From the NCBI GenBank assembly GCA_965649765.1, contig OZ287758.1, positions 53,630,001-53,694,000 of the forward strand: a DNA stretch of 64,000 nucleotides, given 5' to 3'. The notes beneath the pieces are model-generated. The model searched no databases and was not told the origin of the DNA. It worked only from the letters and a program-made list of their open reading frames with translations. Below, one piece after another: positions 9,429 to 61,164 of this stretch. How positions within the stretch are numbered: position 1 is the stretch's first letter; every line of letters starts with the position of its first letter. The translations under genes and the position numbers were made by a program. The stretch is from Bispira polyomma. Lineage: Eukaryota.

Positions 9429-9449
9429 GGCACTGCCAAGGGGCAGTGC
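9416..9449 (+). promoter_or_regulatory. -1 programmed ribosomal frameshift signal (gag to pol), element 1
   Basis: In-phase A_AAA_AAC (9416-9422), 7-nt spacer, then stem gcactgcc-aagg-ggcagtgc. The -1 frame reads into the 9446 ORF (KRLGHCQGAVHKR). Confidence 0.8.
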
Positions 9450-12314
9450 ACAAAAGATCAGAAAAAATCAAATATAATGAAGTGTTGGAGGTAAAGAAAT
9501 TTAATACTAGAATATGTGTAAATAGTGAAATGTGTGAAAGGGCGAGCATGAATTGGAGACACGACTGGAAGAAAGTAAATCAAATGTCTTATGCACAAGT
9601 GGTACAGGAAGGGAATAAAAAGGAAATCAGTAACAAAAACGAAAAAGTGGAAACAGTCCCCAAAATCAGCTCGTGCTTTCACAAAATGTCAAATAATGTT
9701 CATGTAAAAAGCAAATGGTCCGAAAACACTAACAAATGCATGTTTACAGGAAATGTAAAACAGAAATTGTATAAAAACACTAACCAATGTATGTTTACAG
9801 GGAATGTCAGGAAATGTCACCCACCAACAAGGGTGAATGCTGGCCCAATTGTTCCCAAATGGGTAAAAGGCAACAATAAGGTGGTTATTTCTCCCCCCCC
9901 CCCCCCGTCCCCAGGAAGGTGGTGTCAAAAAACACTCAGTGAACAAATTAATAATGACACTTTAAATGGCACACACAACAGGTTTTCCCCCCTAGAACAA
10001 TTTCAGTGTGAAGAAACCATAGTGATGGGTAACCAAGGGGAAATAGTAAATGATCCCACTGTGGAACCCCATAAAGGTCACAACATGACTAATCCAAAAC
10101 GAACAGATAACTCTAAGAACCAACATAACAGGTTTGTGCCCCAAGAACAATTTCAGTGTAAAGAAACCATAGTGACGGGTAACCAAGGGGAAACATTAGA
10201 TGATCCCACTGCGGAACCCCATAAGGGTCACAACATGACTAATACAAAACAAACGGGTAACTCAAAGAACCAACACAACAGGTTTCCCCCACTAGAACAA
10301 TTTCAATGTGAAGAAACCATAATGATAAGTAACCAAGGGGAAATAGTAAATGATCTCACTGCGGAACCCCATAGGGGTCATAACATGACTAATACAAAAC
10401 AAATGGGTGACTCAAAAAATCAGGTTATTTACACTGCTAAAACCAAAGCTAACCTCATGGGACGAGGTGAACTTAACTTAAAAGGGGATAGCAACAGTAA
10501 TATAAACACTGAGGATAAATATGAGTTTCAATTACAGGTGAAGCCAAAGCACAAGGATCTTATGCGTACAGCAGTAGATAATGCCACCTTCAGGGAATGG
10601 TATGACCAAAGCACTGACAAATTTGGGTTTGTTCCCCTAGGGGATTTAAAAATACCAACACGAGACAGGAAAAATAAAAGTAGTGCATCTATGTGCAAAC
10701 TACATGAGATCATAACAGGTGATAAACAGCATAACTTATTGTGGCTCTCAGATACAAATAGAATCTGAATTAAAACCAGACAAATGGGCAGAATTGCTAG
10801 GTGACTATTGGGATAAACAACTCTCCTTCCTAATACGCTATGGCTTTCCAGTTGACTTTGATAGATCAAATATGCTATCTCATAAAGATACAAATCACAA
10901 TTCTGCAAAATTTTACACTAAAGATGTTGAAGCATATTTAGAAGAAGAAAAGCAGTTCAAAGCTATACTAGGTCCGTTTAAGAAACCTCCAATAAAAAAC
11001 TTACATATATCACCCTTCATGACCAGGGAGAAGCCTGGGGGTGCACATAGAAGAGTCATAATTGATCTCAGCTTTCCTTTAGGTGAATCTGTCAATGCAG
11101 AGGTTCTAAGAAATAGCTACCTAGGCATGCATACCTTACCTACTATAGATGATGTCACAAATAAAGTTAGATGCTTAGGCAAAGGCTCCCTTTTGTACAA
11201 AACTTATGTCAGCCGGGTATTCCGGCACGTCAAAATGGACCCTAAAGACTATGACCTTTTAGCTTTAAAACTCGACGACTATTATGTGGACACGTGCCTG
11301 CCCTTTGGGTTCAGGCACGGAAGTGCAATATTCCAACACCTAAGTGACGCTATCCGCTTCATTATGTCTAAAAAGGGCTTTAAAGTCACAAATTACATTG
11401 ATGATGTCATAGGGTACGGTATGCCCAGTACGGCAGAAAAGTCTTTTAAAATGCTCCATAAACTTTTAGTAGATTTGGGTTTTGCAATTAGCCAGAAAAA
11501 ACTTATTAGCCCAGCTACTAGTGTTACATGTCTGGGTGTACTAATAAACACAGAAAATTTCACTGTCTCAATTCCACCGGAAAAACTCAATGATGTCAAG
11601 AATGTATGCCTAAAGTGGCATAAAAAAACACACTGTTCAAAACGAGATCTCCAATCATTACTAGGCAGCCTATTATATGTATCCAAGTGTGTTAAAGTTT
11701 CACGCTTTTTTCTAAACAGAATGCTTGATGTACTTCGCTCGGCACATGATGACAGGTCCATACAATTAACAACTGAATTCAAACAAGACCTTGCATGGTT
11801 CAGTAAATTCATTTCACAATTCAATGGTGTTGCTTTCTTCGACCATAGAATCCCCAAAATGGGTATAGAGCTAGATGCATGCTTGCAAGGTCTGGGTGGG
11901 CGATGGGGTAATCAGGTGTACACACTTCAACTTCCTCTACGCTTTCAAAATTACTCTATTGTTCACTTGGAGATGATCAATATTGTCGTGGCTATCCGGT
12001 TATGGGGTTGCCATTGGGCAGGAAATAAAATTGTGGTATTGTGCGACAATCAGGCGGTAGTCTCGGTACTTACCAATGGCAAAACTAGGGATCTTACTCT
12101 GGCAGCCATGGCTCGAAACATCCAGATGGAAGCTGCCAGGGCAGATATTGACCTACGAGTAGTACATGTCTTAGGTAAAAATAATGACGTAGCAGACTTG
12201 CTATCTAGATGGGCAATAACCAGCGAACCTTCAAACAGATTAAGGAAATTTATAGTAGAACCAATATGGTTACCTGTAGGGGTGGAAGCCACCCATCTTG
12301 ACTGGAATATTTGA
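9446..12314 (+). pseudogene. Pol of element 1: disordered N-terminus, reverse transcriptase and RNase H; frameshift near 10736 and motif-A Asp lost
   Basis: RVIIDLSFPLGESVN, LPFGFRHGS, YIDD, ELDACLQG, CDNQAVV, ADLLSR. ORFs 9446-10768 and 10719-12314 join at HN/YCGSQI. KTYVSRVFR replaces KVDISRAFR of element 2. Confidence 0.9.
9974..10423 (+). repeat. Three in-frame 150-bp (50 aa) tandem repeats in the pol N-terminal region
   Basis: HNRF.P.EQFQC.ETI...NQGE...D.T.EPH.GHNMTN units start at 9974, 10124 and 10274. Confidence 0.95.
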
Positions 12315-12327
12315 TTGTATTCTTTAG

Positions 12328-13324
12328 GTACAAATTCCTGGTTGGCAAAGGCAGCTGGCAGAGCAGCTGGAAGGGCTCATACAGCCTTCAGACCCTCCAC
12401 TCAAAAATCTTATAACTTTATGTTCAGAAACTTCCTAGCTTACTGTGTGTTTGCAAATATTGCAATACAACCAATCACGGCTACTATTCTCTTAGCTTTC
12501 CTCGCGGTTTTGGCTGAAAACAACACCTCTCACTCTGGTATAGCAAATTACTTGACTGTAATCAAGGCAAAGTTGGCCCTATATGGCCTTGACACCTCAG
12601 CCTTCATGGATCCTAGAATAAAGTATTTCCAAAAGGCAATTGCATTGCATAAACCCTTTAAAGTACAACTTAAATCCATCATTGACATTCCTCTGCTGAT
12701 CCAAATCATCAAAAAATGTGACTTTATGTACATGGGTCAGGTCTACAAGGCCATCTACCTCTTTGCATTTTTCTCATTCTTGAGAATATCAAATTTGGTT
12801 CCCCACTCTAACTCTACTTACTCACCCCTACAACACCTAGCCAGAGGTGACATCATATTTGCACCTCCTGGTCTTCAAGTACTGATTAAATGGAGTAAGA
12901 CATTACAGAGCAGGGATACAGTTAGACTTTTAAAAATACCCTCACTTGGGGGTTCCCCAATGTGTCCAGTGGCTGTCATTTCCAATATGCTTGCCATCAC
13001 TCCTGGTAAAAAAACTCGCCTCTGTTTCAATGTAAAAGCTTGGCCACGTGGCTCCCTATGACTGACACTAAAGTCAGGCGTAACTTCGCTATCATTCTTA
13101 AAGATCTTGGTTTGCAAAATTCTAACATCACTTTTCATTCTTTTAGACGTTCTGGAGCCACGTCGGCCTTTAACAAGAATGTTTCCATTCAAAATATTCA
13201 AAGTCATGGCACTTGGACCTCAGAATGCATCTGGCGCTACATTACACAAGACCATGACTCCTCTGACCAGGTGGCGTTGGCCTTTCAAAATTCAGTACAT
13301 CAACCTTCCTCTTCTACCTACTGG
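12328..13324 (+). pseudogene. Tyrosine recombinase of element 1; 1-nt deletion in the A-run near 13010; ancestral stop probably at 13322-13324
   Basis: FFSFLRISNL, HSFRRSGAT and HGTWTSECIWRY give the R-H-R-W-Y set. One extra A restores KKNSPLFQCKSLATWLP, homologous to GKDLPLFQFKQNAIWLP. ACC TAC TGG aligns with ACC TAC TAA of element 2. Confidence 0.9.
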
Positions 13325-16669: not shown

Positions 16670-17782
16670 CTAACAGCAACCATCACTGGCAACCCTCGGT
16701 ATATACTTCTTAAATTGCAAGACATAAATGAATGGATTGATGATGCAATTGAGGTAGGCCATTATTATTGAAAACACATAAAATGGTGACCTGATCAATG
16801 CCTTGAACTGGATGATGCCAACATTTGCCAGAAAGAAGGCCACCTGGTTCCACACCCAGCAAACAAAGAATGCCACACATACCAAAATTAATGTCTTGAT
16901 CAGCTTGGTCTGCAGCTTCCCTTTCTTCTGCACCACCTCTGGTTTCTGCTTCTTCATTTTGATGGACACAGGTTCTTTATTATCTGAACCAAGAGAGTTG
17001 GCAATTGTAGAGTGCTTTTGTGACAAGGTACTGCTCTGTTCTCCTTGAGCATCAATAACAAAAGCTTCATTGATCACTCCATTATTAGCATCTGCTCCCA
17101 TGTTTTCTTTCTTGTTGGAGTCATCCACTTTAGATGAATTTCCATATTTCCGCAGCATTTTCTGCCCTTTCCTTATAGCCATCAATATTCGGATATAGCA
17201 AAACACCATGATCACAATAGGTGTGAAAAACTGCAGCATAAAAGTGGCAATTCCAGCACTTTTTGACATGGCTTTGGAGGCCAGAGTTCCAGCATGACAC
17301 AGGCTGTCCTTTACGTCAGATGCTGTGTAATAAAAGGCAATCTGATAAGCAAAGCCAAGGATCCAAGGCAACACCAAAGCTACAGCCATCTTCCATTTGC
17401 GATAAAAGGTGGAATATGTAAATGGGTGTACAATTTTGAAGTAGCGTTCCGCAGTTAAAATTACCATATTGAAGGTTGAAGATGTGATCAGAGCCCACAT
17501 AAACATATCTGTGTCCCAGAATTTGCAAAAAAATCTATCAGTAATGCTATCATCTTGGTAGGTGTGTGGCGTATACCCAAAGCCAACCACAATGTTACGG
17601 TAGCTAATACCCAAAAAGATAGAAGTCAGGGCATCAATGACACTCTGGTTCAGAATGAAATAACTTGATTTAGATTTCTTCAGATTCGGATGTCCAATCC
17701 AGGTCACAATCACCATAATGTTTAACAGTGCACCTAACACGGCTACTGAAGTGTGCAAAGTGGCTTGCCATATAACAACCAT
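16670..17782 (-). CDS. Class A (rhodopsin-like) orphan GPCR, galanin/allatostatin-receptor-like invertebrate expansion
   Basis: Uninterrupted 370 aa ORF with seven hydrophobic segments, NQSVID (TM2), Cys at the top of TM3, ERY, CW (TM6) and NCIINPFIY (TM7). Confidence 0.93.
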   Translation of the reverse strand: MVVIWQATLHTSVAVLGALLNIMVIVTWIGHPNLKKSKSSYFILNQSVIDALTSIFLGISYRNIVVGFGYTPHTYQDDSITDRFFCKFWDTDMFMWALITSSTFNMVILTAERYFKIVHPFTYSTFYRKWKMAVALVLPWILGFAYQIAFYYTASDVKDSLCHAGTLASKAMSKSAGIATFMLQFFTPIVIMVFCYIRILMAIRKGQKMLRKYGNSSKVDDSNKKENMGADANNGVINEAFVIDAQGEQSSTLSQKHSTIANSLGSDNKEPVSIKMKKQKPEVVQKKGKLQTKLIKTLILVCVAFFVCWVWNQVAFFLANVGIIQFKALIRSPFYVFSIIMAYLNCIINPFIYVLQFKKYIPRVASDGCC

Positions 17783-18877
17783 GGTGGTTTACTAAGATTG
17801 CCAAAAAATAGAAATATGCTGGTGAAAAGACAGTTACCAGCACTTAACTATTCCCAAACATAAAACACATCCAAAAACTGTAAACTACTGAGTTTGCTAT
17901 AGAGTAATGTTCTATCTATATAGTTCTACAGCTGGTTGATACGTGGGTGTCCAAGTTTCTGCTAAAGTCAGAAATGGGGAATAGCCAATTGCAGGAGCCC
18001 TTTTATTGGTTACACCCTGGACACAAATTGCAAGTCCTGGTCAGATCACTACTAATCTACCATTTCTTTGATGGTTAATGGACTGTGTTATTATTTAATG
18101 AAGATGAAACAACATCAACCATTAAATGAGTATACTTTGATCTTAAAAGGGAATTGTGTCAACTCCTAGTACTTTCACTATTTCACTATAGTATTTTGGA
18201 CTTGTTTTTTACATATTTTTGTGGGTAAAATGCAACTGCTACTCAAAAAATACATATGTCCATAATTTTACATTCTTTGGTAGCAGCATCTGCAAGAAAA
18301 AGAAACAGTCAGTGACCGCTGAAAAGGTCACATAGAAAGCATGGCCTCAAACTGGGTCACGCATCTCAGATGCTAGAAACCAACAGACACAAATAAAAAT
18401 AACCTTTCAGGTACTGGTATCCCAAAAACAAAGTAAATGACTACAACATTTGATCAGAGTTTATCTAAAAAAATATTCCACCACCTACAGTGGGTGTAAC
18501 TGTATTGTTATACCTTATATTATCACTTACAAAAATGTGAATACTTCATAAAATATTGATTAGTTTTAATCTTTCTTATTTTGACATTTTTATTAGGATC
18601 CATTTGTAATTGTTTACCTTCTGGCATCTGATTTTCTAGCTTCTGTAGTGTGCCAATCTTTAGTCAGTAATTCGAAAACTAAAGACCTCATCTGTAACGA
18701 GGCTGTCTATATGAAGTTTCAAAGCATCTCAGCTACAACTATTTTCATGAGCAAAAAACATAAAATACTAAAATACAATAATTTAAAAGCAAATAATTGA
18801 ATTGATATCAATGGCCAAGTGTTAGATTGTCATTAGGAAACCAAATTAAAAAGCAAGATGGATTGAAAGACCCTTTA

Positions 18878-31260: not shown

Positions 31261-32370
31261 CTAATGGCACCCACTACAGGCGAGCCTTGGAATGTACTTC
31301 TTAAATTGCAAAACATAAATGAATGGATTGATGATGCAATTTACGTAAGCCATGATTACAGAGAACACATAAAATGGTGACCTGATCAAAGCCTTGAACT
31401 CGATGATGCCAACATTTGCCAGAAAGAAAGCCACCTGGTTCCACACCCAGCAAACAAAGAATGCCACACATATAAAAATTAATGTCTTTATCAGCTTGGT
31501 CTGCAAATTCCATTTCTTCCGCAACAACTCTGGTTTCTGCTTCTTCATCTGGATGGACACAGCTTTAGTATCTAAACTGAAAGAGACGGCCACTTTGGAG
31601 GATCCTTGTGAAAAGGTACTGCTCTGTTCCCCTTGAGCATCCCCAACATAAGCTTCATTTGCCACTCCATCGCTAGCCTCTGCTCCCATGTTTTCTTTCT
31701 TGTTTGAGTCATCCATTTCAGATGATTTGCCATAATTCTTCAGCATTTGCTGGCCTTTCCGTATGGCCATCAGTATTCGGACATAGCAAAACACCATGAT
31801 GACAATGGGTATGAAAAACTGCAGCATAAAGGTGGCGATTCCAGCACTTTTTCTCATGGCTTTGGAAGCTAGAGTTCCAGTTTGACACTGGTTATCCTTC
31901 ACATCAGAAGCTGTGTAATAAAAGGCAATCTGATACACAAATCCAAGGATCCAGGGCAGTGCCAAAGCTACAACCATCTTCCACTTGCGATAAAAGGTGG
32001 AATATGTAAATGGATGTACAATTTTGAAGTAGCGTTCGGCAGTTAAAATCACCAGATTGAAGGTTGAAGATGCGATTAGAGCCCACAAAAACTTATCAGT
32101 GTCCCAAAATTTGCATAGAAATCTATCAGTAATGCTATCATCTTGATAAGTGTGTGGTGTATACCCAAAGCCAACCACAATGTTACGGTAGCTAATACCC
32201 AAAAAAATAGAAGTCAGGGCATCAATTACACTCTGGTTCAGAATGAAATAACTTGATTTGGATTTCCTCAGATCCGGATTTCCTATCCAGATCACAATCA
32301 CCATACTGTTTGAGAGTGCACCCAACACAGCTGCTGCAGTGTACAAAGTGGCTTGCAATATAACAACCAT
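31261..32370 (-). CDS. Class A orphan GPCR, tandem paralog of 16670-17782
   Basis: Intact 369 aa ORF, colinear and highly similar to the first copy, with the same motifs (NQSVID, ERY, CW, NPFIY). Confidence 0.93.
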   Translation of the reverse strand: MVVILQATLYTAAAVLGALSNSMVIVIWIGNPDLRKSKSSYFILNQSVIDALTSIFLGISYRNIVVGFGYTPHTYQDDSITDRFLCKFWDTDKFLWALIASSTFNLVILTAERYFKIVHPFTYSTFYRKWKMVVALALPWILGFVYQIAFYYTASDVKDNQCQTGTLASKAMRKSAGIATFMLQFFIPIVIMVFCYVRILMAIRKGQQMLKNYGKSSEMDDSNKKENMGAEASDGVANEAYVGDAQGEQSSTFSQGSSKVAVSFSLDTKAVSIQMKKQKPELLRKKWNLQTKLIKTLIFICVAFFVCWVWNQVAFFLANVGIIEFKALIRSPFYVFSVIMAYVNCIINPFIYVLQFKKYIPRLACSGCH

Positions 32371-33265
32371 GATGTTTTACCAAGATAGACACTTGGTGTT
32401 TCAAGAGAGCAAAATAAAAAAATATAGATTTTTCACTCTAGTTAACTATTCCTGATGATGAAGCACATCCAAAAACTATAAACTACTGACAAATGTATCT
32501 ATATAATTCTACACCTATAAGAGAAGTGAACGTTCCTGCCAAGTTAGAAATGTAGAATAACTCTGGGAGAACTCTTTATATCTCTTACTTGCATCCTGGT
32601 CTAAAATTGCATGCATAAGTTACATTGTTAATAATAAGCCAATTGTACACATAATTATGAACAATTTATGGGCTGGAAAATGGAGTTGGTGAGTGTCTCA
32701 TTAATTATTGCAGAGTAAAAGGAACCTCTTTCACAATCTTCTTCACACCGTGGCCGCAAAATTTCCTTTTCTCTTTTCATTTTGTAATTTTCCAAGTTCT
32801 ACCAAGATCACAGGATACAACATAATAGGCTGAGATTAGAGCAGACACAAATTATTTAATAATTAGAGCATTAGGACTTATACTTTTGGACAGCAGGCAT
32901 CAGAATACATAATTTACTCTGTGTGAGAACTGCCCAGGATTAACTATAGTAATTAGATTATTTTTACAATAAGAGAGGGACTGTTGGGGACTGATACTTT
33001 TGGAGACTATGGGGCCATTCAAAACAGATAGCAGACCTCATTTACTCTGTGTTAGAAGTAGCAAGAATATTATTACAGTGAAGGTGGAGTCAACAGGTCC
33101 ATTTTAAAAATAAGTGCTCAGTTCCTCGGAGTAGTGCCTGAGGAAACTCAGTTAACCGAACAAGTCATAGAAAGACAATACTGCGATTAAATATATTTAT
33201 TTCATATTTACAGCTACTATTACTAAGATATTTATGTACAGTTCTTTGACATGATATGCACTTTG

Positions 33266-33588: not shown

Positions 33589-34574
33589 TTAGTAGGTATT
33601 TTGTAGAATAGTTTTAAAGGAATCGGCAACTTGAGTACCAGCATTGGCAGAATCCGAAATGTAACGCCAGACGCAATCGGACGTCCAGGTGCCGTGCCTT
33701 TGGATGTCCTGAATGGTGACATTATTGTTAAAGGCAAAGGTGGCACCTGAACGCCTGAAAGCGTGAAAGGTCAAGCCAGAGTACTGCGGGCCCAGCATTA
33801 GTAAGACATTCTTAAGATGCCTCCGAACCCTAGTATCAGTAAGGGGCAACCAAATGGCATTCTGCTTAAATTGAAACAAGGGCAGATCTTTCCCTTTAGG
33901 GGAAATAGCCAAACAGTTTTTTAAAGCTTGAACCGGACATAAGATGGAATTGGTTAAAGCTGGTATGGTGAGCAAGCGAACGGCATTATTGTTTTGAAGG
34001 GTTTTAGACCATTTAATAATGAGGACAGCGTACCCTGGCTTGAAAAGAACATCAGCCCTTGCAAGCTGCTTAAGAGGAGAGTAAGCAGCAACCGAATGAG
34101 CACAGAGGTTAGACAGCCTCAGAAAGGAAAAGAAACTGGTAAGATAGACTGCTTTAAAAATTCGACCCATGTAAGTACTGTCGCACTTTATAATAAGAGA
34201 CCTCAACAACTGGACGTCGAAAATTGACTTAAGTTTTACTTGCAATGGTCTATGCATCGCCAAAGCTTTATTATAATAGGTAATTCTTTTATCAGAAAAA
34301 ACATCTACGGATATATGGAAGAGGACACACTTAGCCTTAATGGCAGAAAGATGATTAAGAACTTGACTAGCCGACACACCATTAAACGTTAAAAACTCTA
34401 AATAAGCTAAGAGATATAACACAGTCACCTTTTGAGGAGGCCATGACATAAAGGCTCCAAACGCCACGAACAGCCTGAACATTCTGTTGTAGGCTCTGTT
34501 AGTGGCAGGGGTGAAGGCAAGTACAAGTCTGTCAGAAGCTTTCTGCATCAAGGAGATGGCCACAGGTTGTATAT
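33589..34574 (-). CDS. Tyrosine recombinase (lambda-integrase family) of element 2; probable second exon starting at 34574
   Basis: 324 aa open frame with FFSFLRLSNL, HAFRRSGAT and HGTWTSDCVWRY. It is preceded by a tgttttctag splice-acceptor-like site. Confidence 0.92.
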
Positions 34575-34597
34575 CTAGAAAACATGACTAACACGTG

Positions 34598-36997
34598 CTA
34601 TATAAGTGAGTTAACTTTTAATAAACTGCGGCAAGCAGGCAGCCACTGGACAGGCCCAGCTAACCTAAATAACGACAAATGGTCGGCTTCAGTTTCCGTC
34701 CATCTTGACAGCAAATCTGCAATTTTATTTTCTTTACCCAAAATATGTATGACAACAATATCAATATTAAACTTGCTAGCTAACATGTATATGTTCCTAG
34801 AATACGTGGCTAATTCGGGATCTCTGGTGCGCCCTGTCCGTAAGACACTTACAACTGCCTGATTATCACATCTGACCAATATTCTACGACCTTTCCATTT
34901 ATGAACCCACAATTTTAGAGCTACCAAGATGTTAAGCATCTCCAAAGAAGCAATATTGACCTCAGTCATTTCTGGAGGAATGTTAATTTGGTACACTTGT
35001 TTCTCAAAAATACCCCCCATTCCAGTAAGGCAGGCATCTAATTCAATCTCACCAGTTATGGGCTTAGGCATGAAAAAAGAGACTCCATTGAACTGTTCTG
35101 CAAAAGTAGTAAACCAATTTAAGTCACGCCTGAATTCAGGGGTGATGGCGATATACTTTCTGGTGTAATTATCTCGTAACAGCTCCAGCATCCTATTCAA
35201 AAAGACCCGAGCATACTTTACACATTTAGAGATATATAATAACAAGCCAAGTAAAGACTGGAGCTCTCTCTTAGTGTAGAATTTTTTGGATTTCCATTCG
35301 AGACACTTATCTTTAATTTGACTTAATTTCTCACCCGGGATGGAAGTAGTACCTCGAATGGTATCCACTACTATGCCCAGGCAGACGACCTGCGTGCTGG
35401 GAGGAACCAATTTTTTCTGACTTACTGTCAACCCCAACTCTTGTAGCAGTTCTTGCAATCTCAGGAAAGTTTTTTGAATTTTGCTGGGAACAGAAATAGC
35501 CAAGAAATCGTCGATGTAGTTGTGGACATTATGATTTTCAGAGTGCATTATGAATCGCACGGCATCCGAAATTCTCTGAAAAATCGTGCTACCATTACGA
35601 TATCCGAACAGCAGAGATCTGTCCACATAATAGGACTTCCACTTTAGACCTAGGAGGTCAACGTCGCCAGGGTCAATGGGTACGTGGCGGAACGCCCTAC
35701 TTATATCGACCTTGAATATCTCACATCCTCTCCCCAATTTTACCACCTCACTAGTGAGATTATCAATGGACGGATAAGACAGTAGAAATTCAACGCCCAA
35801 GTAAGAGGAAGGAGAAGCTCCCGCATTAACCGACCCCCCTTGAGGCCAACTCAAGTCTACAATTACTCTCCGGTTAATTGAGTTCGGTTTGTGTCTCGTC
35901 ATAAGGGGAGAACAGTGCAGGCCCGGAAGAGGAGGTTTGTCAAATGGCCCTAACATGGCGCCTAACTCACATTCTTCTTTCATATAAGCCTCTACATGCT
36001 GTGGATATTCCTCAGCCGACTTATGGTTACTCTCACTGGATTCCAATTTTACTGAATGATCGACGTCCAGGGGAAATCCATATTTTATGAGGAGAGGCAA
36101 TTGCCAATCCCAGTAATTTTTGAGGTATTTTTTCCAACTCTCGGGTCTTAATTGAGAGGGAACGGGGATTTGCAACCCTTCATAATTATGCCTGCCGTCA
36201 GCCCGAATTAAGTCATGCATTTGCAAAATGGAAAGTTCGGGCCCTCCCTCACCCTGATCTGCCATCTCACAGCCCAGAGCAGAGAGAGGAGTGAATCCAT
36301 ATGCATGTTGGGTTTGAGCTTGCCATTTTCTGTAAGTAGGATTTGAGGCAGCCTTAGCTAACATGCCTTTCTTATTTACTTTCTGTTTCAAGGCACAAGA
36401 GTACTTATCGGGACATTCGAGACTTTCCGGGCTATCTTCGGAAGCAGTTTTACTCCTGCCCTCGCCTCGGTCAACGGGCTTGTCACTAGGGCCAGAAAGG
36501 AATCGAACGGGCTCGTCCACATTTTCACCGTCATCGACCGGCAGCGACACTAAAGCTGTATACCTGTTAGCAAGAGGGAGGACAGCCACACCCCCATTGA
36601 CCCGCCTCTCTTCGCCCCCATTCAACCTCGAGCACTTGACCTCCTTTGTTATCACCTTGCCCTGTTTCGCACCCCGGCCTGGCTTCACAATGGAAGTCCA
36701 TTGGCCCACAGAGGTACCAAGGGGCCTCAACAATATGTCACTTTTGCCACGTAATATCTCTACCTTACTCTTGTCAACCCTAGCCTGTTTTACGGGCACA
36801 TCATTAACACTTCTATTTACACACCCATACTTTTGAACTGGGCCATTCTTTTGCAACGCCTGGCTATAACTCAAGCCTGGCCTGGTGCCCTTCACATATT
36901 TACACGTTTTTCGCCACACAGACCTCTCAAATAATTGTACACTCTTAAATTCAGTATTATAAACAAACCTACATTTGTGCTTTGCACTTTTAGCCAC
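34598..36997 (-). CDS. Pol (reverse transcriptase plus RNase H) of element 2, reached by -1 frameshift from gag
   Basis: 799 aa open frame: RVIVDLSWPQGGSVN, KVDISRAFRHV, LLFG (usually LPFG), YIDD, ELDACLTG, CDNQAVV, ADLLSR. No ATG near the start of the frame. Confidence 0.93.
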   Translation of the reverse strand: MAKSAKHKCRFVYNTEFKSVQLFERSVWRKTCKYVKGTRPGLSYSQALQKNGPVQKYGCVNRSVNDVPVKQARVDKSKVEILRGKSDILLRPLGTSVGQWTSIVKPGRGAKQGKVITKEVKCSRLNGGEERRVNGGVAVLPLANRYTALVSLPVDDGENVDEPVRFLSGPSDKPVDRGEGRSKTASEDSPESLECPDKYSCALKQKVNKKGMLAKAASNPTYRKWQAQTQHAYGFTPLSALGCEMADQGEGGPELSILQMHDLIRADGRHNYEGLQIPVPSQLRPESWKKYLKNYWDWQLPLLIKYGFPLDVDHSVKLESSESNHKSAEEYPQHVEAYMKEECELGAMLGPFDKPPLPGLHCSPLMTRHKPNSINRRVIVDLSWPQGGSVNAGASPSSYLGVEFLLSYPSIDNLTSEVVKLGRGCEIFKVDISRAFRHVPIDPGDVDLLGLKWKSYYVDRSLLFGYRNGSTIFQRISDAVRFIMHSENHNVHNYIDDFLAISVPSKIQKTFLRLQELLQELGLTVSQKKLVPPSTQVVCLGIVVDTIRGTTSIPGEKLSQIKDKCLEWKSKKFYTKRELQSLLGLLLYISKCVKYARVFLNRMLELLRDNYTRKYIAITPEFRRDLNWFTTFAEQFNGVSFFMPKPITGEIELDACLTGMGGIFEKQVYQINIPPEMTEVNIASLEMLNILVALKLWVHKWKGRRILVRCDNQAVVSVLRTGRTRDPELATYSRNIYMLASKFNIDIVVIHILGKENKIADLLSRWTETEADHLSLFRLAGPVQWLPACRSLLKVNSLI

Positions 36998-37027
36998 TGC
37001 ATTAACGCAGTGGCCCCTCAGTTTTTT
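36993..37027 (-). promoter_or_regulatory. -1 programmed ribosomal frameshift signal, element 2
   Basis: GCA_AAA_AAC_TGA with a 6-nt spacer, then stem gccactgc-gttaat-gcagtggc. The -1 frame reads KLRGHCVNAVAKS into pol. Confidence 0.82.
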
Positions 37028-38085
37028 GCCCCTTTCTTATGACATTCACTAGTCTGGTGGCTACCCTCACATGTCTCGCAATGATGTTTATATAACTGAC
37101 CTCCAGTATTGTGAGAGCTGGGAAATCGACAATTTCCTTCCTGATAAAAGCGACAAGACATTGCACCCTTACGACGTACAGACTTACTGCTACTCGAGTT
37201 ACTTGGCCGTCCATTCGCCCCAGAGGAATTTCTACTGTTCGACACATGGCGCTGAGCATGGGCTCTTCGGATTCGATCCATCTTATCTACCTCTAGCCAC
37301 CCCAACTTATCCATCTCCATACTTGTCAATACGACTGCATGGCAGGCCTTAGCTGACTCCCAAGAAAAATCCTGGGCATCCTCCATAAGACCCCCCATGT
37401 AATCCAGCATGGCATTCTTCACTTCGATCGACTTCTCCTCGTGGGCAATCCGAGCGAAACCACACACCCATTGCAACACGGTTAACTCATCGTAGCTAGG
37501 CCGAGACTTAGAACTACCCGTGAGCACATAGTTTTGAGGCCAAGCGGTGACCTTTTTTACCAACACCTCATTCGCCCCACTACGCTGGGACTTCAGTTTA
37601 CCTTGCGAGGTGGTCTCATTCAACGTCTTGAGATCTTTCAATCTCTGCTCCACTTGGAGCTGTATTAGGGCATTCTGGTTTAAAAAATCTATGCCAGGAA
37701 TTATACTGTCGGACGTAGCGATAGATGGGCTCTTACCTACGCCAGCAGAGCAACTAGCAGGCCTGTCAACACTAGAACTAATCAAACTACTACTTGCCTG
37801 AACGGGGACCTGATGACTGGGCTGACTACTGGTGAGGTTCGTCGCCAATGCTGCCTCATTCCTCTGAACCCGCTGGTCCATTTTTACCATTAACTCGTTC
37901 ATCGAGTGCAGTTGGAGTAGTATCGCGTTCGTAACTGCATCGCCAGACTCACCGTTTGCGGGTTCAGTGTCAGAGGCAGCATCGATCTCCTCCCCAGAGG
38001 CAGAGTCAACGGTTGCAATAACGCAATTTCGCCCTACAGGACGCTCATGTTTGGTTAAACATCGACTACACTCATAGACAGGCAT
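37018..38085 (-). CDS. Gag-like ORF1 of element 2
   Basis: 355 aa with an N-terminal CSRCLTKHERPVGRNC finger, coiled coils and a C-terminal CRFYQEGNC...H...HHCETC...H....C cluster; homologous to the element-1 ORF1. Confidence 0.9.
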   Translation of the reverse strand: MPVYECSRCLTKHERPVGRNCVIATVDSASGEEIDAASDTEPANGESGDAVTNAILLQLHSMNELMVKMDQRVQRNEAALATNLTSSQPSHQVPVQASSSLISSSVDRPASCSAGVGKSPSIATSDSIIPGIDFLNQNALIQLQVEQRLKDLKTLNETTSQGKLKSQRSGANEVLVKKVTAWPQNYVLTGSSKSRPSYDELTVLQWVCGFARIAHEEKSIEVKNAMLDYMGGLMEDAQDFSWESAKACHAVVLTSMEMDKLGWLEVDKMDRIRRAHAQRHVSNSRNSSGANGRPSNSSSSKSVRRKGAMSCRFYQEGNCRFPSSHNTGGQLYKHHCETCEGSHQTSECHKKGAKN

Positions 38086-38143
38086 AACTAAAAGGTGTTT
38101 CCACTAAAATACTGTAAAATATAAAAACATATACACCACCAAC

Positions 38144-51329: not shown

Positions 51330-52892
51330 GGCCACAGCTTTAATTATTAATGGCATATAACAGAAAATGGTTTGTTGAAGTTATCTATCGGATACTTCTA
51401 TTGCTTCTTCAATATTCACAAAGATATCACTTAGGTATAAGTCACAGAGACTTAATTTGGATAAAACAACTTGTGAAACAATCTCTGATAAAACATAATA
51501 AACATTGGATAGTAATTGTTCAGAGAATCGTGTAAGAACACTTGTGTCAATTAACAAAGCTGTCATAAAGACAATTTTAGTAAAAAGAAGGAATGGCAAT
51601 GTTGGCCAAAAGAGGAATAACTGAAAGGGTAAAAGAAGCAGTAATTTTGTACTTAATACCACACATTTCAACATTGAATTTATTTGTGCACATATTAAAA
51701 ACGGTTTATGAGCTTGGTGATCTACACTGAGAGATAAATAGAGTGAGGATTCCTGTACACCCATATTGTATTTTACAAACTTAAATGTGCTGTACTTTAT
51801 AATAATCTGCTGATTGATAACTAAAAACAATATTTAAAAAATGCAATTGTAATAGATTTGCACAACAACAAAACACTCAACATCATTCATCTGGCTTTCC
51901 CGATAATAATTATTTTATCCACATTTTTTTTTTGCATATCCTTGTAAATAATGTATGTACAAATACATGTATTTCTCCAACTTTCTGTTAAAGTGTACCG
52001 AGCTATGACAAATTACAATGCCAGGCACTGCAGTGTCTTTTCAGAATGGCACTTTTTCTCAAAATGTATTTTTGTAAATTGTCAGCATATTTCGCATTCC
52101 TAATATTCCATAATATATATATATGGAATGTCCACCAAACTTCATACATTACCCATAATAAGTGTGTTTTATGCCTGTTACAAATGGCTGTCTGCTATTC
52201 TACGTATCTTAATAATAAAATAATAAGTGTATTATATCATGCTTTTTGTTGCAGAATGGGCATATATTACAGTTTAAAATTTTCCATTTTACTAGGTTAT
52301 TAAGGCAGGGTAAAATGCGGTGTAGTACTTTGTAATAAAATTCAAAGTCTTTTTCCTCTTTTATTTTTACTGTGTATTGAAATTTATTTCTTAATTTATA
52401 AAAAGATTTTTTCCATTTTATTTTTTTATGTATGTGTAAATTTTTTTAGATTTTTTGTCGTATTTTTGTACCATTTCATTATCATGCTTATAAAAAGAGA
52501 CTTTGCAGGATGGACAATTGGCGCATTTTGTTAAAATTAAACCTTAGAATATTGAAGTTGTCTAGAAAGTTAAGTGTATTTTCCACACGAAGCTCCATGC
52601 TTCATTTGATTCAGTAACTTTTGTAGCCCAAGACGCTTTCAAGACTTGGAATTGAGATTAAACATACATCATTTTTAGTCGGCCTTCTTTGTAATCTGCA
52701 ATAAAAGTATTTCTTTTTTTTTGATATTTTATTTATTTTTGCACATTCAGTATATAAATACAAGCTTTAAGAGAACTAATAATTGTCTACTCCCAAGGTC
52801 ACATAAATATATATCATTAAACATTTCTGACTAAGACCTCTTAACAGTATGCATTTAAGACTTTGTAATTTGGTGGGTTTTCTTCACATTTT

Positions 52893-55800
52893 TCACATTA
52901 GCAAAAGTAATTCTCCAAACTTTTCTTCAAAATTATAAATTTTGTTCTTTTTCATTGCTATTTGCTTGTCAATGTCTAAACGATCTCTTAAAATAAACAA
53001 AAAATCAAGGAGACCTGGCTGTCTGTTTTCCTTTCTACATTTACTGACATAATATATACCTGTTAACAATACATAATTCAGGACATAATACAGCCTTTGG
53101 TCCACATTTATAATTCCCAGTAATATATCAAGCACAGAAAAATCTATTGATACAGCCAATATTGTGAACAGCCATCTTTTAACTTGAGACCAAAAAGCTT
53201 TAATTCTACTGCAATAAAAACAAACAATGTTCTAAGTTATCAACCTGGTTACAGTCATTGCAAAGAGATTCTTTTATGTTCCATAGGAAAAGTTTATAAT
53301 TGCAATTATAAATTCTGTGTAATATTTTGAATTGTAATCTGATGACATAAGTATCTTTCAAAACTTTACAGGGTAGTAGGTACACCGTGTGCCACTCGAC
53401 TAGGGAGTCAAGAAAGGGATAATATTCCATCTATTTATTTTGGCTAGTGGGAATAATATGGGACCTACCAACAAATTCATTATGCACTTGCGAATTTTGG
53501 ACTTTGCTGATGTTGTTTAAACAGTTTGTTACTACATTGTCAGAAACTGATAGTGGTACTTGTTTGGGTAGTATCCTTAACTTTGTTGATAAGACACTGA
53601 CAAGTTCATTATATTTCATTTCAGGTATATTTAGTCCATATTCAATTTCTATCTCCTTTCTGCTAACAAAAGTGCTATCAGCTCTTACAATATTATTGAC
53701 AAAGGCTAGCCCCTTAGCTTCCCAGTCTAAGTATTTTTTTTTAAATAGCTTTTTTGTCTATTTGAAACAAGTCATTTTTGAACAATTTTTCTTTTAGAAG
53801 TTCCTTTATACTTTGCAGCTCTACAGTTCTAAAATCAAACCACACCGCTAGCACATCAGCATAAAATTTGGTCCGAGGTCTTTCTTGTATGCCAAGAAAT
53901 TTATATTCTCTAAAGAGCTCATTTTTTTCCATTTCCAATAATTTTTCAGCAATAATTTTCCATTTGGCATCAATGTTATTTGCAAATCTTTTACCCACAT
54001 TACTTTTGTGCTAGCTGTGACATGCCTGACTGAAACCATCTTTAAACCCCCTTCGTGCAAAGACTGTATCAAAGTATTTTTCACAACTAACGGTTTCTTG
54101 TCATTCCAGATAAAATTGTAAAACAGCTGATCCAAGTCTTTCATTAAACTATTTGGCATAGGCAAAACAGAGGCTAATTGCAGAATGTGAGGTATTACTT
54201 GAGGATTTCAGTACAGTGTTTTTCCTTTTATCATCAGACATCTGGTCTTCCAGATATTTAAAATTTATTTTATTTTGTACACTTTATCATCAATATTTAA
54301 TGTTTTCATCTCATTTTCATTTAAAGAAAACCATGTACCCAATGTTTTGAAACTGGTGTTGATCCATTTAATTCCTATAGTGTGATCCTCACTTAGGGTT
54401 CCATTTTTCTATATAATTATTGCCTCCATTTTGCAATCATTCAGCTTTAATCCAGCATAACGATAGAATTCTTCTAACAGACTAATAGAGTTTCTCAAAG
54501 AATTTATGTTGGTTAAAAAAAAAAGAGTCCTATCGTCAGCTAGCTGACATGGTTTAACAGAAACATTATCTTTAACTAAACCATCTACTACTTTTGATTC
54601 ACGTAGAATAAAATCTATGACTTCCACGATAAGAAGCAAAACAAGCATTTGTGTTGAAATTCCCAATTGACACTGTCAAACGCCTTTTCAAAATCAACTA
54701 TAAGGGTAATACAGGGATATTTAAAAATTTTGCAGTATTCAATTACAGCAGCTATTAATCTTGTATTTTCACTATAGAACCTTCCCGCCACATATCCAAT
54801 TTGATCAGGATTTATAACTTCCTTTAATGCAACCTTTAGCCTATTGGATAAAACTTTTGCTAGTATCTTATAATCTACATTCAAAATTGATAGCGGTCGC
54901 CAAGACTTTAAATCAGTCAAATCTTTATCTTTCTTAGGTATTAAGTGAATGACCCCCTGTTTTTAACTTTGAGTAAGGTTACCTTTATCGAATGCTAAAG
55001 TAAAACTGTTAAACATTTCCTCTCCTATATCAGCCCAAAATACTTTATAAAATTCTATGGGAATTCCATCAGGGCCAGGTATTTTATTATTTGAGTCTTT
55101 CACTACTTTGCTTATTTCCTCATTGGTGATGGCATTTTCACAAATTGATTTTGTTTTATTAGTAATAGAGGGAATATTGGCCTTTGTAAATACTTTTCAA
55201 CATCCTGCGTGAAGTTCTCTGAAATTGGACCGGCAGAATAAAGTCTTTGACAGAAGTTTTTTGCACTTTCAAGATAGCATCAGGTTGATTGATAATGTTA
55301 CTACCAATTTTCAGAGAGCGTATGTGACTGGCCTTGTGATTTGTTTTTTCTAGGTTTAAAAAATATTTTGTAGGTTTTTCGTATTCATCTAGCATTTGAC
55401 AGCGAGACCTGACAATGCATCCTCGAGCTTTAGCATGGTATATTTGATCAATTTCTTGTTTAATCAAGTTGCTTTCTTCAATTAGTTCAAAGAACGGATT
55501 GAAACTTATTTCCTTTTCAAGAAATGATAGTCTTTCGGTGAAGGAATTAAGAGTGGCATTTTTTTTTCTTTTTCTTAATCAAGAAAGATACAGACTGAGT
55601 TCGAATGCAACATTTCATATAATCCCACGATAAGTGTTTGTTTTTCAAATTTGATTGGTCTATTTTGGCATTCGCTATTGTTTCTTTTATACAATCTACA
55701 TATTCTTTGTCTTGCACCAAGCCAACATTCATTTTCCAAATACCTTTACCTCTACAATAATCACCAGTGATCTCTAAAGATGTAAGCAAAATTCTATGAT

Positions 55801-56492
55801 CAGACTTAATACTAGGCAATATTTTGACAGTTTTTACATAGAATTCTAAATGACGAGAAATTAAAAATAAGTCTATTCTACTCTGCACAAAGCTAAATCT
55901 GGTTTTTTTACGCCTAGTATACCTTACAGTGTTGGGGTGGCGCATTCTCCAAATATACACTAAGTTTAACATCTGCATTATTTCTAATGGATAGTCCTTT
56001 TAACTGCACGGTTTATTTTGTCAAAATTTTAATCTATAATTTTTCAATGCAAAACTTAAGATCCTCTCCTAATATCATCGCCTGCATGATCTTTTAATTG
56101 TGAAAGTAGATATAGACCAAAATTATTTTGTTCTTGCCTTTTATCTGAAAGAGGAGCATATATATTAGCTACAATAAATTTATATCTCCACTCTTACATT
56201 CTAGCAGCAACAATCGATCGAAGTCGTCCTGTATAGTATATGTTATATCTAGATTGATACTGTTTGATATCAGAATAGTCACCCCTTGACTGTTTAATTC
56301 TCCATGAGAAAATTCAATTCGTCCGTTCCATTGATCTCTTCATTCATTTTCAGAAACCGGAGTTGAATGACATTCTTGTAGCAAGAATATACCTGGCGGT
56401 TTGGCCTTCAGCTATAGAAAGACAACTTTTCTTTTAAACCTGTTACCCAACCCTCTAGTGTTAAAACTATAGATGGTCATGATATTAGCCAT
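52893..56492 (-). pseudogene. ORF2 (APE endonuclease, RT, zf-RVT) of the L1/Tx1 element
   Basis: MANIMTIYSFNTRGL, LLQECHS, SRIDLFL..SDH, WRPLSILNVDYKILAK, DFEKAFDSV, QLADD, FIWNDK, GGL, CNDC...DNLEH; many frameshifts. Confidence 0.9.
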
Positions 56493-57224
56493 TAGTTAAG
56501 CATAAAATATAAGCTGTTGGGAGAGATATATACCCTTGTGACCTTTATATATCTACGTTTATAACTAACTGTGCGCAAAATACTAACATGTTCTTCAAAA
56601 TAAGACTTAAACAAGAAAGAAACATATAAACTACACAAACAATATGTAACATATATATATATAGTCCACCTTTTGGTGGCAAGTTTCATATTCATATTGT
56701 AAATATGTACAAAAATATGAGCGTTTCAAGGCATATTAAATCAATGGATCAATTTTAATAATGTCTTACTTTTTAGGAAGATATATATATATATACTTTT
56801 TTCTATCTGTGTGAATATCTATTGTGGAGTAAATTACAGAAGAAACATTTAAATCCAGAAGTATATCAGAAGTACTCGCTTTCACTTTGCCTATAAGCAA
56901 TCCTTAAAGTTACAGACAAATTACCTATTTTAAATTTGGGACTAGTGGTCAATCATAGAAGTAGTATTGCTCAATAATGTAGAAATTTACACTTTATAAT
57001 GACTACATATATATGATAGTAGACCAGTGATAATTTATTGTATGTAATTAGCCATGAACTTAATAAACAAAATAAATAGTGTCATTTAGCCTGTCTAGAT
57101 TGGCTTGACAACAAGTGTTGGACATTAAATAGACTTTTAACGCTTGCTCAATTTGCATGATATTTTAATTATTGGTTTCTTTTTCAACCTCAAATGTCAG
57201 TTATTCCTCTCTAAATTGGCTCAG

Positions 57225-57660
57225 TAACAAGACCACATTTTAAGTAACAAGACCACATTTAAAGTAACAAGACCATATTTTTATAAACAAGACCATATTT
57301 TTATAAACAAGACCACATTTTTACTGACAATTAATACTACATTTTAAGTAAACAAGATCACATTTAAGTTATAAAATCTAAGTAATAAGACCACATTCAT
57401 TTTAAGTAACAAGACCACATTTAAAGTAAACAAGATCACATTTAAATTACAAAACCACATTTTAAGTAACAACACTACCTTTAAATTATAAGACCACATC
57501 TTAAGTAACAAGACCTCATTTTTGGTAACAAGAATACATTAAAGTAATAAGACCACCTTTTAAGTAACAAGACCACATTTAAGTAACAAGACTACGGTTG
57601 AGTACGAAGACTACTTTGAGTAACAAGATCCTATTTTTAATAACAAGATCACATTTTGTG
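57225..57660. repeat. Minisatellite (~20-23 bp, aagtaacaagaccacatttt) in the inter-ORF spacer of the L1/Tx1 element
   Basis: About 19 degenerate tandem copies, further copies near 58245 and 58390, and ~130-200 bp higher-order repeats at 57670-58350. Confidence 0.9.
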
Positions 57661-58450
57661 TCATAAAAAATGTTACTGAGTTTAAAAGTTCCCAGTGTTA
57701 AATTAATGTTTTTAAATTATTAGATTCTTTTTTCAATCTCATGACATGAGCATTAATATAATTTATAGACTTTCTGGCAATTACATACCTGCCGTTTGTA
57801 TTCTAGCAGACACTTTGTTATTTACAGTGGAATTCACAGAAAAAAATGACAGGGGAATTCACAAAATAAATGACTAAGTTATGACTAATGTCAGTGAGTT
57901 TAAAGTTCTGGGTATCAAAATAATATTTTAAATTATCAATTTCTTTTTTCAACCTCATGTCATGAGCATTTATATAATTTATTGACTTTGTGGTTAACAC
58001 TGACATTAGTTATGACTAATGTGAGTGAGTTTAAAGTTCCCGCTAATAAAATCGTATTTTAAATTATTGATTTCTTTTTTTAACCTCATGTCATGAGCAT
58101 TGATATAATTTATAGACTTTCTGGTAAATACATAACTGCTATTTGGATTCTGGCTGTCACTTCGTTATTTACAATGGAATTCATAGAATGCTGACAGGAA
58201 TTTACAAAAAAAAGTTACTGTTATTCCTCTCTAGATTGGCTTCAAGTAACAAGACCTTATGACAAGGCCACATTTTAAGTTATTAATAATGTCGTTAACT
58301 TTCAAGTTCTCTAATTTTTCAACCTCATGACATGAGCATTAATATTAAATTGACACTGTTATTCTTCTCTAGATTGGCTCAGTAACAAATTAAACAAGAC
58401 CACATTTTTATTCATGAAAATGGTCACTGAATTTGAAATTATTATAGCGA

Positions 58451-59751
58451 TTACCTTACTTAAACTAATAGCTCACTAAGTTTGTTATTCCCATACCAGT
58501 TTTTGGAATCCCAAATGTCTTCATTGTCCATTGACAGACCCACACCCCCAGTACTTGTCCCTTGGGTTTGCTTCCACTAATGTTGCTTTGCCTGTACTTA
58601 TGAGAAATTTCTTCATTTTGGCCAAACTTTGCAATGAGGGCTGATAACATATATTTGTCACATACATTGTTCCATTTCTTTGAGCTGAAGTTATGCATTT
58701 GAATTCCAAGCCTCTTTGCATGAGCTGGGTCATCTGTGTTCATTATTGACTTTGATGTGGTTTCGTCACTGAAGTGTTTTGCCATCCTAAACATGAAGTA
58801 GTGCTGAGAAGTTTCAAATCTTAGTCCATCCTTCACAAACAGAGCAGGGCAGTGGTTTGATAGTTTGGAATGCTTGGTAAAAAAGGCCACCATATTACCT
58901 CTCTTTACTGTTGTCAATGTGCTTGGGTGCAAATCTTTTTGTAGCTTATGAATCTCTTGGGTTGTATTCTGTTTTCTATTGAGGATCAGTTTGTCTACAT
59001 TTAGAGGAGCTTTATACTTTCCATGAGAAGTATACGTTGCCTGCAGGATGGGTGTAAACATTCTTCGACATTGCATAACCTCCGAAGGGAAATCCTTAAC
59101 GACAATAATGCCTTCCTTTTTAAGAATGTCCCTGTTTTGCCATACACGCAGTCTATCTTCATAGTGGTGAAACTTCACAATGATTGGTTTATCCTTTGAG
59201 CCTGAGAATCCTAACCTGTGTGCTCCCTCAATGTCCCTTACTGACAGCTGAGCTCCTTGCCTGCTGCACAATTTGTGTATGACAGATTCACAGTTTTCTG
59301 AAGTTGTTGAATCTTCTGATGGTTTAATATGAAGAAATTTTAAGTTTTGTCTCCTAGATACTCCTTCTAAAGATATCACTTTATCTTCCAGTTCACAAAA
59401 TCTTTCCTCTTGTTTTTCTAACTTGCTAGTTAGCTGCCAATTGGTGGACTCGAATGTATCTATCCTTTCAGTAAGCACTTTTATTTCATCCAATTTGTCT
59501 GAGGTAAATTGTACTGTTTTCTTGACCTCATCTAAATCTTCGGTGATTGGTTCTAACCACTCCTTAAGCAGACTTCGGATAATGGTTAGAGATGGTGGTG
59601 CATCTGGCGATTGTGGGGAGACCAATTCGAATTCCTTTTTCTGTTGTTTAGTACTTCCTACACTAACACTACTTGACTTACTCCCACTGCTGCTGGTTCC
59701 ATTTTTGTGTGGCATTTTGCTTTTATTTCCAATTATTAATGTTTGTTTCAT
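58451..59751 (-). pseudogene. ORF1 of the L1/Tx1 element: coiled coil, RRM-like L1 domain and C-terminal NADAR (YbiA-like) domain, with two frameshifts near the end
   Basis: L1 ORF1 motifs LE..SRRQNL, AHRLG..KPIIVKF and DFP.EV..RR. Then FF....LSN..P..F..DG..F.TSQHYF, AKRLG, W......M......KFGQN, L.STG..TLVEANPRDKYWGCG, WYGNNKLSELL. Confidence 0.85.
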
Positions 59752-59810
59752 TTAACATCAGTAAAACAACTAATATACTCCAAGATAAGATACATAAAAA
59801 GCTAAACACC

Positions 59811-60205
59811 TGTGGCATTTATTCAAGTGAGGGACTGAGGTCAGTAAGTACACCAGCTGATTGTCCCTCAAAACATAAATAGCAGATTGTCCCTGGCCAC
59901 ACACACCACACTGAACTGTGCCCACTTTTGATACAGAAGTTCTGTGTCCTTATATGTAATGTTTGTCCCCAATACTGATTTTTATATGTCTTTGTAAATA
60001 TTTTCTGTGGCAATTATTCAAGTAAGGGACTAAGGCCAGTTAGTACACCAGCTGATTGACTTTTAAAACATAAATAGCAGATTGTCCCTGGCTACACACA
60101 CCACACTAAACTGTGCCCTCTTTTTGACACAAACTTCTCGTGTACTTATATGGAATGTTTCTCCGCAATACTATTTTTTTAATATGTCTCTGTAAATAAT
60201 TTTTA
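59811..60205 (-). repeat. Two tandem ~195 bp monomers in the LINE 5' UTR
   Basis: tgtggca.ttattcaagt.agggact.agg...aaacataaatagcagattgtccctggc occurs at 59811 and 60007. Confidence 0.9.
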
Positions 60206-61164
60206 GTTTTTAAACTTTTCCACCTTATAACACATTCACTGTATATCTAATTTACTTCATTCTTGTGTTGAAGAAGTCTATGTACTATTAAAAAACATAT
60301 AATCCACACAGATCTCCTTTTCTTCCTTTAAAAAATCCTTAAAACTCTCTCATATGTTATTCTCTCACTCTCACTCCCGAAAGTATTTCTTTTAATTCGA
60401 TCATAACTATGCCATAACATATTTCATCAAATTTTGTTCACACTTTTAATAATGTAGATTAGTTTGGTTATGATTAAGGATTTTATAATAGTGATTTTCC
60501 TAAAGAGATTTAGATTTCTGTTTTTCCAAGATGTGTTATTTTCTGTAATTTGTTGTCCCAATTTAGCTTCATGCTTTCATTTTAATCAGTACCAATATAT
60601 ATTCCAAGACATTTGACTGGGGCATTAGGCCAATGGAGTCCAGCTATATAGCAATGTTGTTGCTTGTGTTTATTGATGCCAAGCCAAATACCCTTTACTA
60701 ACTCCAAAATAATATAGTTTTGTTGGTAAATATTCAAGAAATATTATTGATGCTGTTTAACAAATTGGCAATTGGAAATCCATTTCTAAAGCCATGAATG
60801 CAACTTTAAAAATTTAATTTGAGCAGGAATTGTTAGTTTTGAGAATAAAGTCTAATATAATACATACATTTATGCATTGAATCTATATATTTGCATATGT
60901 GGCTATGATTTTCCCAATTTTATTATTATTGTTACAGTCATTAGTACTGAAATTACTGAAATTGTGTAATTTTATGCTGCTTAATTAATTCAAATGATCA
61001 TATTTAATAAATGAAATCACATAATTTAATTTGACAAAATATTGCTGACGTGTTATCTGAATGATAACACAATGCAGTCAATTTAGTTTGAAAATACATG
61101 GCTTTAGTTCAAATATTAAATGATTGACTCTTTCTAGTTAAGAAAATATTATGAATATACAATT

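Follow-up and report, generated by a model that had tools for sequence, protein, structure and literature searches.

The window, i.e., the whole 64,000-nucleotide stretch of Bispira polyomma DNA that we analyzed, carries a 7.7-kb L1/Tx1 element flanked by target site duplications (TSD) on the minus strand, between positions 52704 and 60393. From its 5' to its 3' end, the element comprises the following features:

60380..60393, TSD on the 5' side, 14 bp
59716..60379, minus strand, 5' UTR containing a ~195-bp tandem duplication
58901..59715, minus strand, ORF1 N-terminal tail, coiled coil, RRM and CTD (L1-type, type II), whose relatives match human ORF1p
58445..58900, minus strand, NADAR domain (YbiA-type) at the C-terminus of ORF1, with a Pfam match, disrupted in the window copy
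56481..58444, minus strand, inter-ORF spacer, ~2 kb long, containing a 20-bp minisatellite at 57223-57657 and repeats of 131 bp at 57877-58125
52893..56480, minus strand, ORF2 of L1/Tx1 type (APE endonuclease, reverse transcriptase, C-terminal zinc-binding region), with many frameshifts and stops
52718..52892, minus strand, 3' UTR with an A-rich tail at its end
52704..52717, TSD on the 3' side, 14 bp

Homology with relatives of the same family ends at 52716 and 60351, in agreement with the positions of the TSD, and an equally long TSD match was found in only 2 of 5000 random 100-bp draws. The type II ORF1, the L1-related ORF2 with its APE, RT and zinc-binding regions, the TSD and the A-rich tail place the element in the L1/Tx1 group. 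The two repeats of the 5' UTR (59810-60004 and 60005-60202) are 86% identical, and the duplication is also present in a relative, L084. ORF1 likely starts at the ATG at 59715, a second in-frame ATG being found at 59751. The spacer is common to the relatives of the family and is hence no private insertion of this copy.

A first-pass annotation of this DNA, made from the sequence alone, had described a LINE ORF1 running in frame into a NADAR domain within a TSD-bounded element, and our analysis bears this out. The minus-strand frame 58465-59751 encodes 428 aa, in which Pfam NADAR matches aa 293-384 (E 2.5e-17, 64.1 bits for a cut-off of 35.1), in frame with the L1-type part of ORF1. The annotation had proposed a search with Pfam models of both domains; the L1-type part of the window copy had no Pfam match. 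All the NADAR motifs that it listed are present in the three-frame translation: a second frame (58524-58739) covers NADAR positions 102-132 (E 5.8e-8, slightly below the cut-off), and the last helix lies in the third frame. The two late frameshifts it had reported correspond to an 8-bp deletion near 58610, evident in all five alignments with relatives, and to a 1-bp insertion near 58549, evident in four of them, as the fifth alignment stopped short of the site. It was also right about a Gln at the usual Glu: the codon of the first catalytic Glu is CAG in the window copy, which departs here from its group (position E43), GAG in L084, and AAG in L082. In the NADAR of E. coli C7, a change from Glu to Gln at this residue abolished activity (PMC11543638, in the parts consulted). 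The last helix of the window NADAR has two more nonsense codons. The three nearest relatives compared are 86-88% identical overall to the window copy, hence its family is older and decayed. The frameshifts and the Glu-to-Gln change make the window copy a dead fossil.

The host genome (1.035 Gb) contains many other copies. A search with the PF08719 profile returned 2147 candidates, which should not be read as copy numbers, and all 150 that were scored exceeded the cut-off. A search with the ORF1 protein gave 100 matches, many in open frames of ~440 codons. From 120 loci we obtained 68 open ORF1s (57 distinct), which group into 22 families at 85% identity. Pfam NADAR was found in all 12 intact ORF1s, with 135-149 bits. 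In an intact ORF1, aa 92-244 match the human LINE-1 ORF1p 2ykp by sequence (E 8.5e-6) and aa 297-416 match the ADP-ribose-bound NADAR 8BAU (E 7e-19). The AlphaFold model of the ORF1 of L062 (pLDDT 87.9) has fold matches to 8bau (1e-11), YbiA 2b3w and the ORF1p trimer 2ykp (3e-6). The first-pass annotation had considered that the domain might lack an HMM or structural match, or be absent from other copies; both HMM and fold match, and NADAR is found in other copies of the group.

To avoid choosing loci by the domain under study, we took 40 loci, not previously fetched, from the 150 matches of a search with the RRM-CTD alone. NADAR directly follows the CTD in 38 of them (partially in four), and was lost by single-copy deletion in the other two. 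Outside the host genome, we found 24 full-length homologous proteins, and Atlas clusters with annelid members. For one host gene, most members of the nearest Atlas cluster are molluscan, which taken alone would point to a mollusc as host. The best named matches of the element NADAR are bacterial, at ~45% identity. In a quick tree, the element NADARs and the bacterial stand-alone NADARs form separate clusters with weak support (SH-aLRT 80-88), and for this reason we leave the donor of the domain unnamed. A viral origin of ORF1 was rejected, as relatives were found in none of 25 candidate viral-contig stretches; the BFVD fold matches of ORF1-NADAR covered the NADAR part only. At one locus (L120), two identical ORF1-NADAR copies lie inverted ~6 kb apart (902-2135, plus strand, and 7951-9184, minus strand), with a common frameshift and no ORF2 detected.

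Catalytic and binding residues were numbered after PDB 8BAU (from the parts of PMC11543638 consulted) and mapped by sequence and structure comparison. Residues E43, K50, E125 and D130 are kept in all 22 families, the count for E125 being biased by an ORF filter that demanded its motif. Because of this bias, we repeated the count on the RRM-CTD-chosen loci, where E43 is kept in 34 of the 36 loci covering it, K50 in 33/34, E125 in 33/35, and D130 in 31/35. W89 is found in 21 of the 22 families, and a Lys or Arg at the position of R79 in 18. The position of R93, which binds pyrophosphate, is basic in 2/22 families versus 91 of 104 other homologues, a set that includes a few likely element fragments. 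As this basic residue is mostly gone, the substrate may differ. The residue of the last strand is Glu, as in the YbiA family. Together with PF08719 scores above the cut-off, the YbiA fold, and the E43 and K50 positions, this places the group in that family.

Comparisons between families show saturation at synonymous sites (mean pS 0.81, pN 0.38); the median dN/dS over the 34 of 231 family pairs that are unsaturated is 0.215. Within families, the common changes in NADAR are 7 synonymous versus 3 non-synonymous. An apparent lead of NADAR in conservation (0.46 versus 0.38) vanished when families chosen by the NADAR profile were left out, and we dropped the claim that it is the best-conserved domain. 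Among the 14 families found without this profile, conservation is 0.50 for NADAR and 0.49 for the RRM-CTD, and it is safe to state that NADAR is as constrained as the RNA-binding core. The first-pass annotation had asked for catalytic residues and dN/dS to be examined. Judging from both, NADAR is under purifying selection, with its catalytic residues retained over the 22 families.

The elements that carry this ORF1 are of two classes. Among 60 long loci, the downstream ORF2 is of L1/Tx1 type in 44, very different in 10, and missing or an unrelated fragment in 6. The two ORF2 classes separate with full support in the RT tree. The ORF2 of L064, an intact relative, matches human ORF2p over aa 5-1200 (E 8e-89); that of L068 matches it in the RT only (E 1e-18). 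Nine of the ten loci of the second class (L065, L068, L073, L079, L102, L103, L106, L107 and L109) have a 2A-like ribosome-skipping motif, GD(V/I)ExNPGP, at the N-terminus of ORF2, near its start. According to the parts of PMC3708506 that we consulted, this motif characterizes the clades Rex1, Crack, L2, CR1 and Ingi. By its sequence, the second carrier class is of CR1/L2 type, at the level of a group (CR1, L2, Crack or Rex1). These elements are ~6.4 kb long and A-tailed, show 95-98% identity within families, and have TSDs in the three cases checked. They are real and young elements.

In the tree, the ORF1s of the CR1/L2-type carriers nest within those of Tx1 type. They are 56-57% identical to the nearest Tx1-type ORF1, for a median of 39% among Tx1-type families, and the RTs of the two classes share only 22-26% identity. 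Because of this disparity between ORF1 and RT, we infer that the whole ORF1 was swapped between the L1/Tx1 and CR1/L2 classes, probably from the Tx1 type. ORF1 shuffling between LINE clades, with one ORF1 type likewise found on unrelated ORF2s, is described in PMC4120745 (consulted in part), with nested insertion of a 5'-truncated element as the proposed route. Its main text has no occurrence of NADAR, YbiA or DUF1768.

In the next family of CR1/L2 type, whose RT is 49% identical, the L1-type ORF1 carries a UPF0029 (IMPACT/YigZ) tail and no NADAR. A genome search for IMPACT-tailed ORF1s gave 1251 candidates, of which 97 were scored. Such ORF1s are found at loci L175, L176, L180 and L193-L210 (e.g., L176:1649-2950, plus strand), with ORF2s of both Tx1 and CR1/L2 types, and are followed by a Tx1-type RT in 15 of 18 fetched loci. 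When the RTs of 21 NADAR and 9 IMPACT elements were placed in one tree, the tail label changed four times along it. A single IMPACT clade was rejected (p-AU 7e-52, with a long-branch warning for the deep split), and RTs that are 70-71% identical have different ORF1 tails. Since sister RT lineages carry the IMPACT/YigZ tail instead, NADAR is accessory: on this phylogenetic evidence, it is maintained where present and dispensable for LINEs as such. At locus L196 (the same as L187; G000:C5:43308500-43318499), a 5'-truncated CR1/L2-type copy sits between the two ORFs of an IMPACT-Tx1 element, within the spacer; the ORF1 of this element also has a 300-bp high-copy insertion. This nesting is a snapshot of the shuffling route proposed in the consulted parts of PMC4120745. 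We had considered L187 as a recent recombinant family, with an IMPACT ORF1 and a NADAR-family ORF2, and rejected it because it is a single nested 5'-truncated insertion. One ORF1 cassette on two LINE classes, alternating with IMPACT/YigZ, offers a natural comparison for the study of accessory ORF1 domains.

The fusion itself, which the first-pass annotation implied to be novel, had already been reported. A YbiA-family NADAR in the ORF1 of several Crassostrea gigas Tx1 families from Repbase is described in PMC12477816 (Genome Biol 2025), and also in the Pol of an Ectocarpus Gypsy; the function of the LINE NADAR was untested there. The oyster elements, which we compared by description only, are thus similar to ours in having this domain in an ORF1 of the L1/Tx1 group. 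Our analysis adds catalytic-site conservation, selection, CR1/L2-type carriers and the IMPACT alternative, which are absent from the passages of PMC12477816 that we consulted. Our literature search found no other paper linking YbiA and Tx1, and none on CR1/L2-type carriers or IMPACT-tailed ORF1s, which Repbase entries may describe. What is new here is that NADAR ORF1s are also found on elements classed as CR1/L2-type, and that they alternate with the IMPACT/YigZ tail. Human LINE-1 ORF1p (2YKO/2YKP/2YKQ) has the same order of coiled coil, RRM and CTD, but lacks the C-terminal enzyme domain. The NADARs of Phytophthora nicotianae (8BAU) and E. coli (YbiA, 2B3W) have in common with the element NADARs the fold and the positions of the catalytic Glu/Lys/Glu/Asp/Trp; they are stand-alone proteins, whereas those of the elements form part of ORF1p and in most cases have no basic residue at R93. 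The antitoxins linked to DarT1 (BC4488 family, DarG1) have a catalytic Asp and an adjoining DarT1 gene. Phage NADARs have a His at the last catalytic position (PMC11125620, in part), and their cognate writer is known. The element NADARs have Glu at this position and fall outside the DarT1-linked family.

What may the domain do? The reading we tentatively prefer, and would put a little short of probable, is by analogy with characterised NADARs: the tail would be an eraser, tethered to the RNP, of ADP-ribose on guanine (perhaps cytosine) bases of the element RNA or cDNA. Known ORF1p biology predicts trimers held together by the coiled coil, with the RRM-CTD covering the RNA of the element, which would thereby be lined with many NADAR domains. 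Hydrolysis of the N-glycosidic bond between base and ADP-ribose would fall to the two glutamates, and an RNA template and single-stranded cDNA free of adducts would leave translation and reverse transcription unblocked. The tested NADAR subtypes, including YbiA, remove N2-guanine ADP-ribose from DNA and RNA (PMC11125620, PMC11833690), and YbiA/NADAR types also act on cytidine ADP-ribose (PMC12945103); NADARs with equal activity in vitro differ in cellular rescue (PMC11125620; all three consulted in part). Human PARP15 modifies guanine N1, and this mark is not reversed by NADAR according to the parts consulted of bioRxiv 10.64898/2026.03.31.715305; the tested NADARs are also inactive on phosphate-end ADP-ribose (PMC11833690, in part). 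These two resistant marks are the known PARP marks on RNA and count against the proposed erasure, as do the mostly lost basic residue at R93, the differences in cellular rescue, and the equal conservation of NADAR and the RRM-CTD.

Since NADAR is accessory and exchangeable, we suggest a role in counter-defence, as the first-pass annotation had speculated. There are precedents of genetic parasites with a NADAR: the phage orphan NADAR AdfN, shown to act in counter-defence, and gp30.3, both anti-DarTG1 (PMC11825919), and the invertebrate RNA viruses in which NADAR largely replaces Macro domains (PMC9503650; both sources consulted in part). The support is indirect and the role unproven, as our searches for guanine-type writers in the host found none and the tested NADARs spare PARP15-type and phosphate-end marks. 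The analogy with viral macrodomains, also drawn in the annotation, holds at the level of function only, because tested NADARs act on nucleic-acid bases.

If NADAR erases base ADP-ribosylation, animals must write this mark on transposon nucleic acids. We found no demonstration of such marking in the literature examined, and the parts consulted of PMC12945103 leave open whether guanine and cytosine are ADP-ribosylated endogenously in eukaryotes. Enzymes able to modify guanine N2 include the shellfish CARP-1 (as cited in PMC11543638) and the ARTD enzyme DarT1 (PMC11543638, in part). Searches of the host genome for Scabin/pierisin-like (PF22596), pertussis-S1-like (PF02917) and DarT (PF14487) domains each gave no match, a weak result because the controls were silent and introns were not handled. 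The genome has 44 PARP-domain matches. Three tandem single-frame genes of 1640-2326 aa (G000:C1:70.79-70.86 Mb) have two PARP matches each; in the one of the three that was scanned for domains (L214:1027-8007, plus strand), cold-shock, ZNFX1 and SF1 helicase domains are joined to two PARP domains bearing H-Y-E triads. This ZNFX1-like helicase-PARP is a candidate RNA-directed ADP-ribosyltransferase, to be taken as a lead only. Three genes of ARTC type (R-S-E), each in a single frame, also cluster at L211-L213 (G000:C14:20.79-20.92 Mb), L211 having ankyrin-like repeats at its N-terminus. The one of the three that we examined has an ExE motif, which we take to be of the arginine type rather than the guanine type. 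A broader and quite doubtful scenario would combine these elements: in lophotrochozoans, an accessory slot of ORF1 would be traded between L1/Tx1 and CR1/L2 elements, with NADAR erasing the marks of an undescribed guanine-ADP-ribosylating defence and ZNFX1-like helicase-PARPs as candidate writers.

Other explanations must be weighed against erasure on the RNP. NADAR might serve the processing or handling of the element RNA, through clean-up of its ends or maturation of the RNP, and might bind instead of cutting; we regard this as unlikely, if worth serious attention. An RNA-processing role was suggested in PMC12477816, NADARs associate with RNA-repair systems (PMC9503650), and the NADAR protein SNA-3 is associated with trans-splicing (PMC11125620; all consulted in part). 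The near-universal presence of the domain within these lineages (38/40 loci) also fits. However, LINEs with a closely related RT and young copies have an IMPACT-tailed ORF1 with no NADAR, and the human L1 ORF1p is tail-less, hence no core step needs the domain. The inactivity of tested NADARs on phosphate-end adducts (PMC11833690, in part) speaks against end clean-up, and the invariance of both catalytic glutamates across families favors catalysis over mere binding. The latter, with the open frames and the saturation of synonymous sites between families that are 30-60% identical, largely refutes the idea of a neutral passenger captured once, even if two of the 40 loci have deleted NADAR and the window copy has decayed; we hold this idea highly improbable.

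It is also rather unlikely, in our judgment, that NADAR is an active N-glycosidase with a target other than a host defence mark, such as soluble ADP-ribose signals, riboflavin-like intermediates, or guanine ADP-ribosylated by bacterial toxins. The loss of the basic residue at R93 would fit a small-molecule or environmental target, as would, weakly, the null searches for guanine-N2 writers. The YbiA family acts on riboflavin intermediates and roles on low-mass ADP-ribose have been proposed (PMC11125620, PMC11543638, PMC9503650), and animal NADARs have been suggested as a defence against bacterial genotoxins (PMC12945103), all from sources consulted in part. Yet, fusion to an RNA-coating protein would suggest that the substrate is a nucleic acid on the RNP, and a diffusible substrate would need no tethering. 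A riboflavin-like target is further at odds with animals, which are not known to synthesize riboflavin. The preferred reading, an eraser of base ADP-ribosylation on the RNP, can be tested with existing oligonucleotide assays, as L064 and L068 are young intact copies, one from each carrier class, with ORF1 at 641-1978 and 7565-8890, respectively.

Elsewhere in the window, there are two retroelement-like blocks (8343-13061, plus strand, and 33589-38103, minus strand) with overlapping long frames and RT and RNase H matches, the first frame being 361 aa long in both. The window also carries two single-frame genes of the rhodopsin family of GPCRs, of 371-372 aa, both on the minus strand (16670-17788 and 31261-32376).
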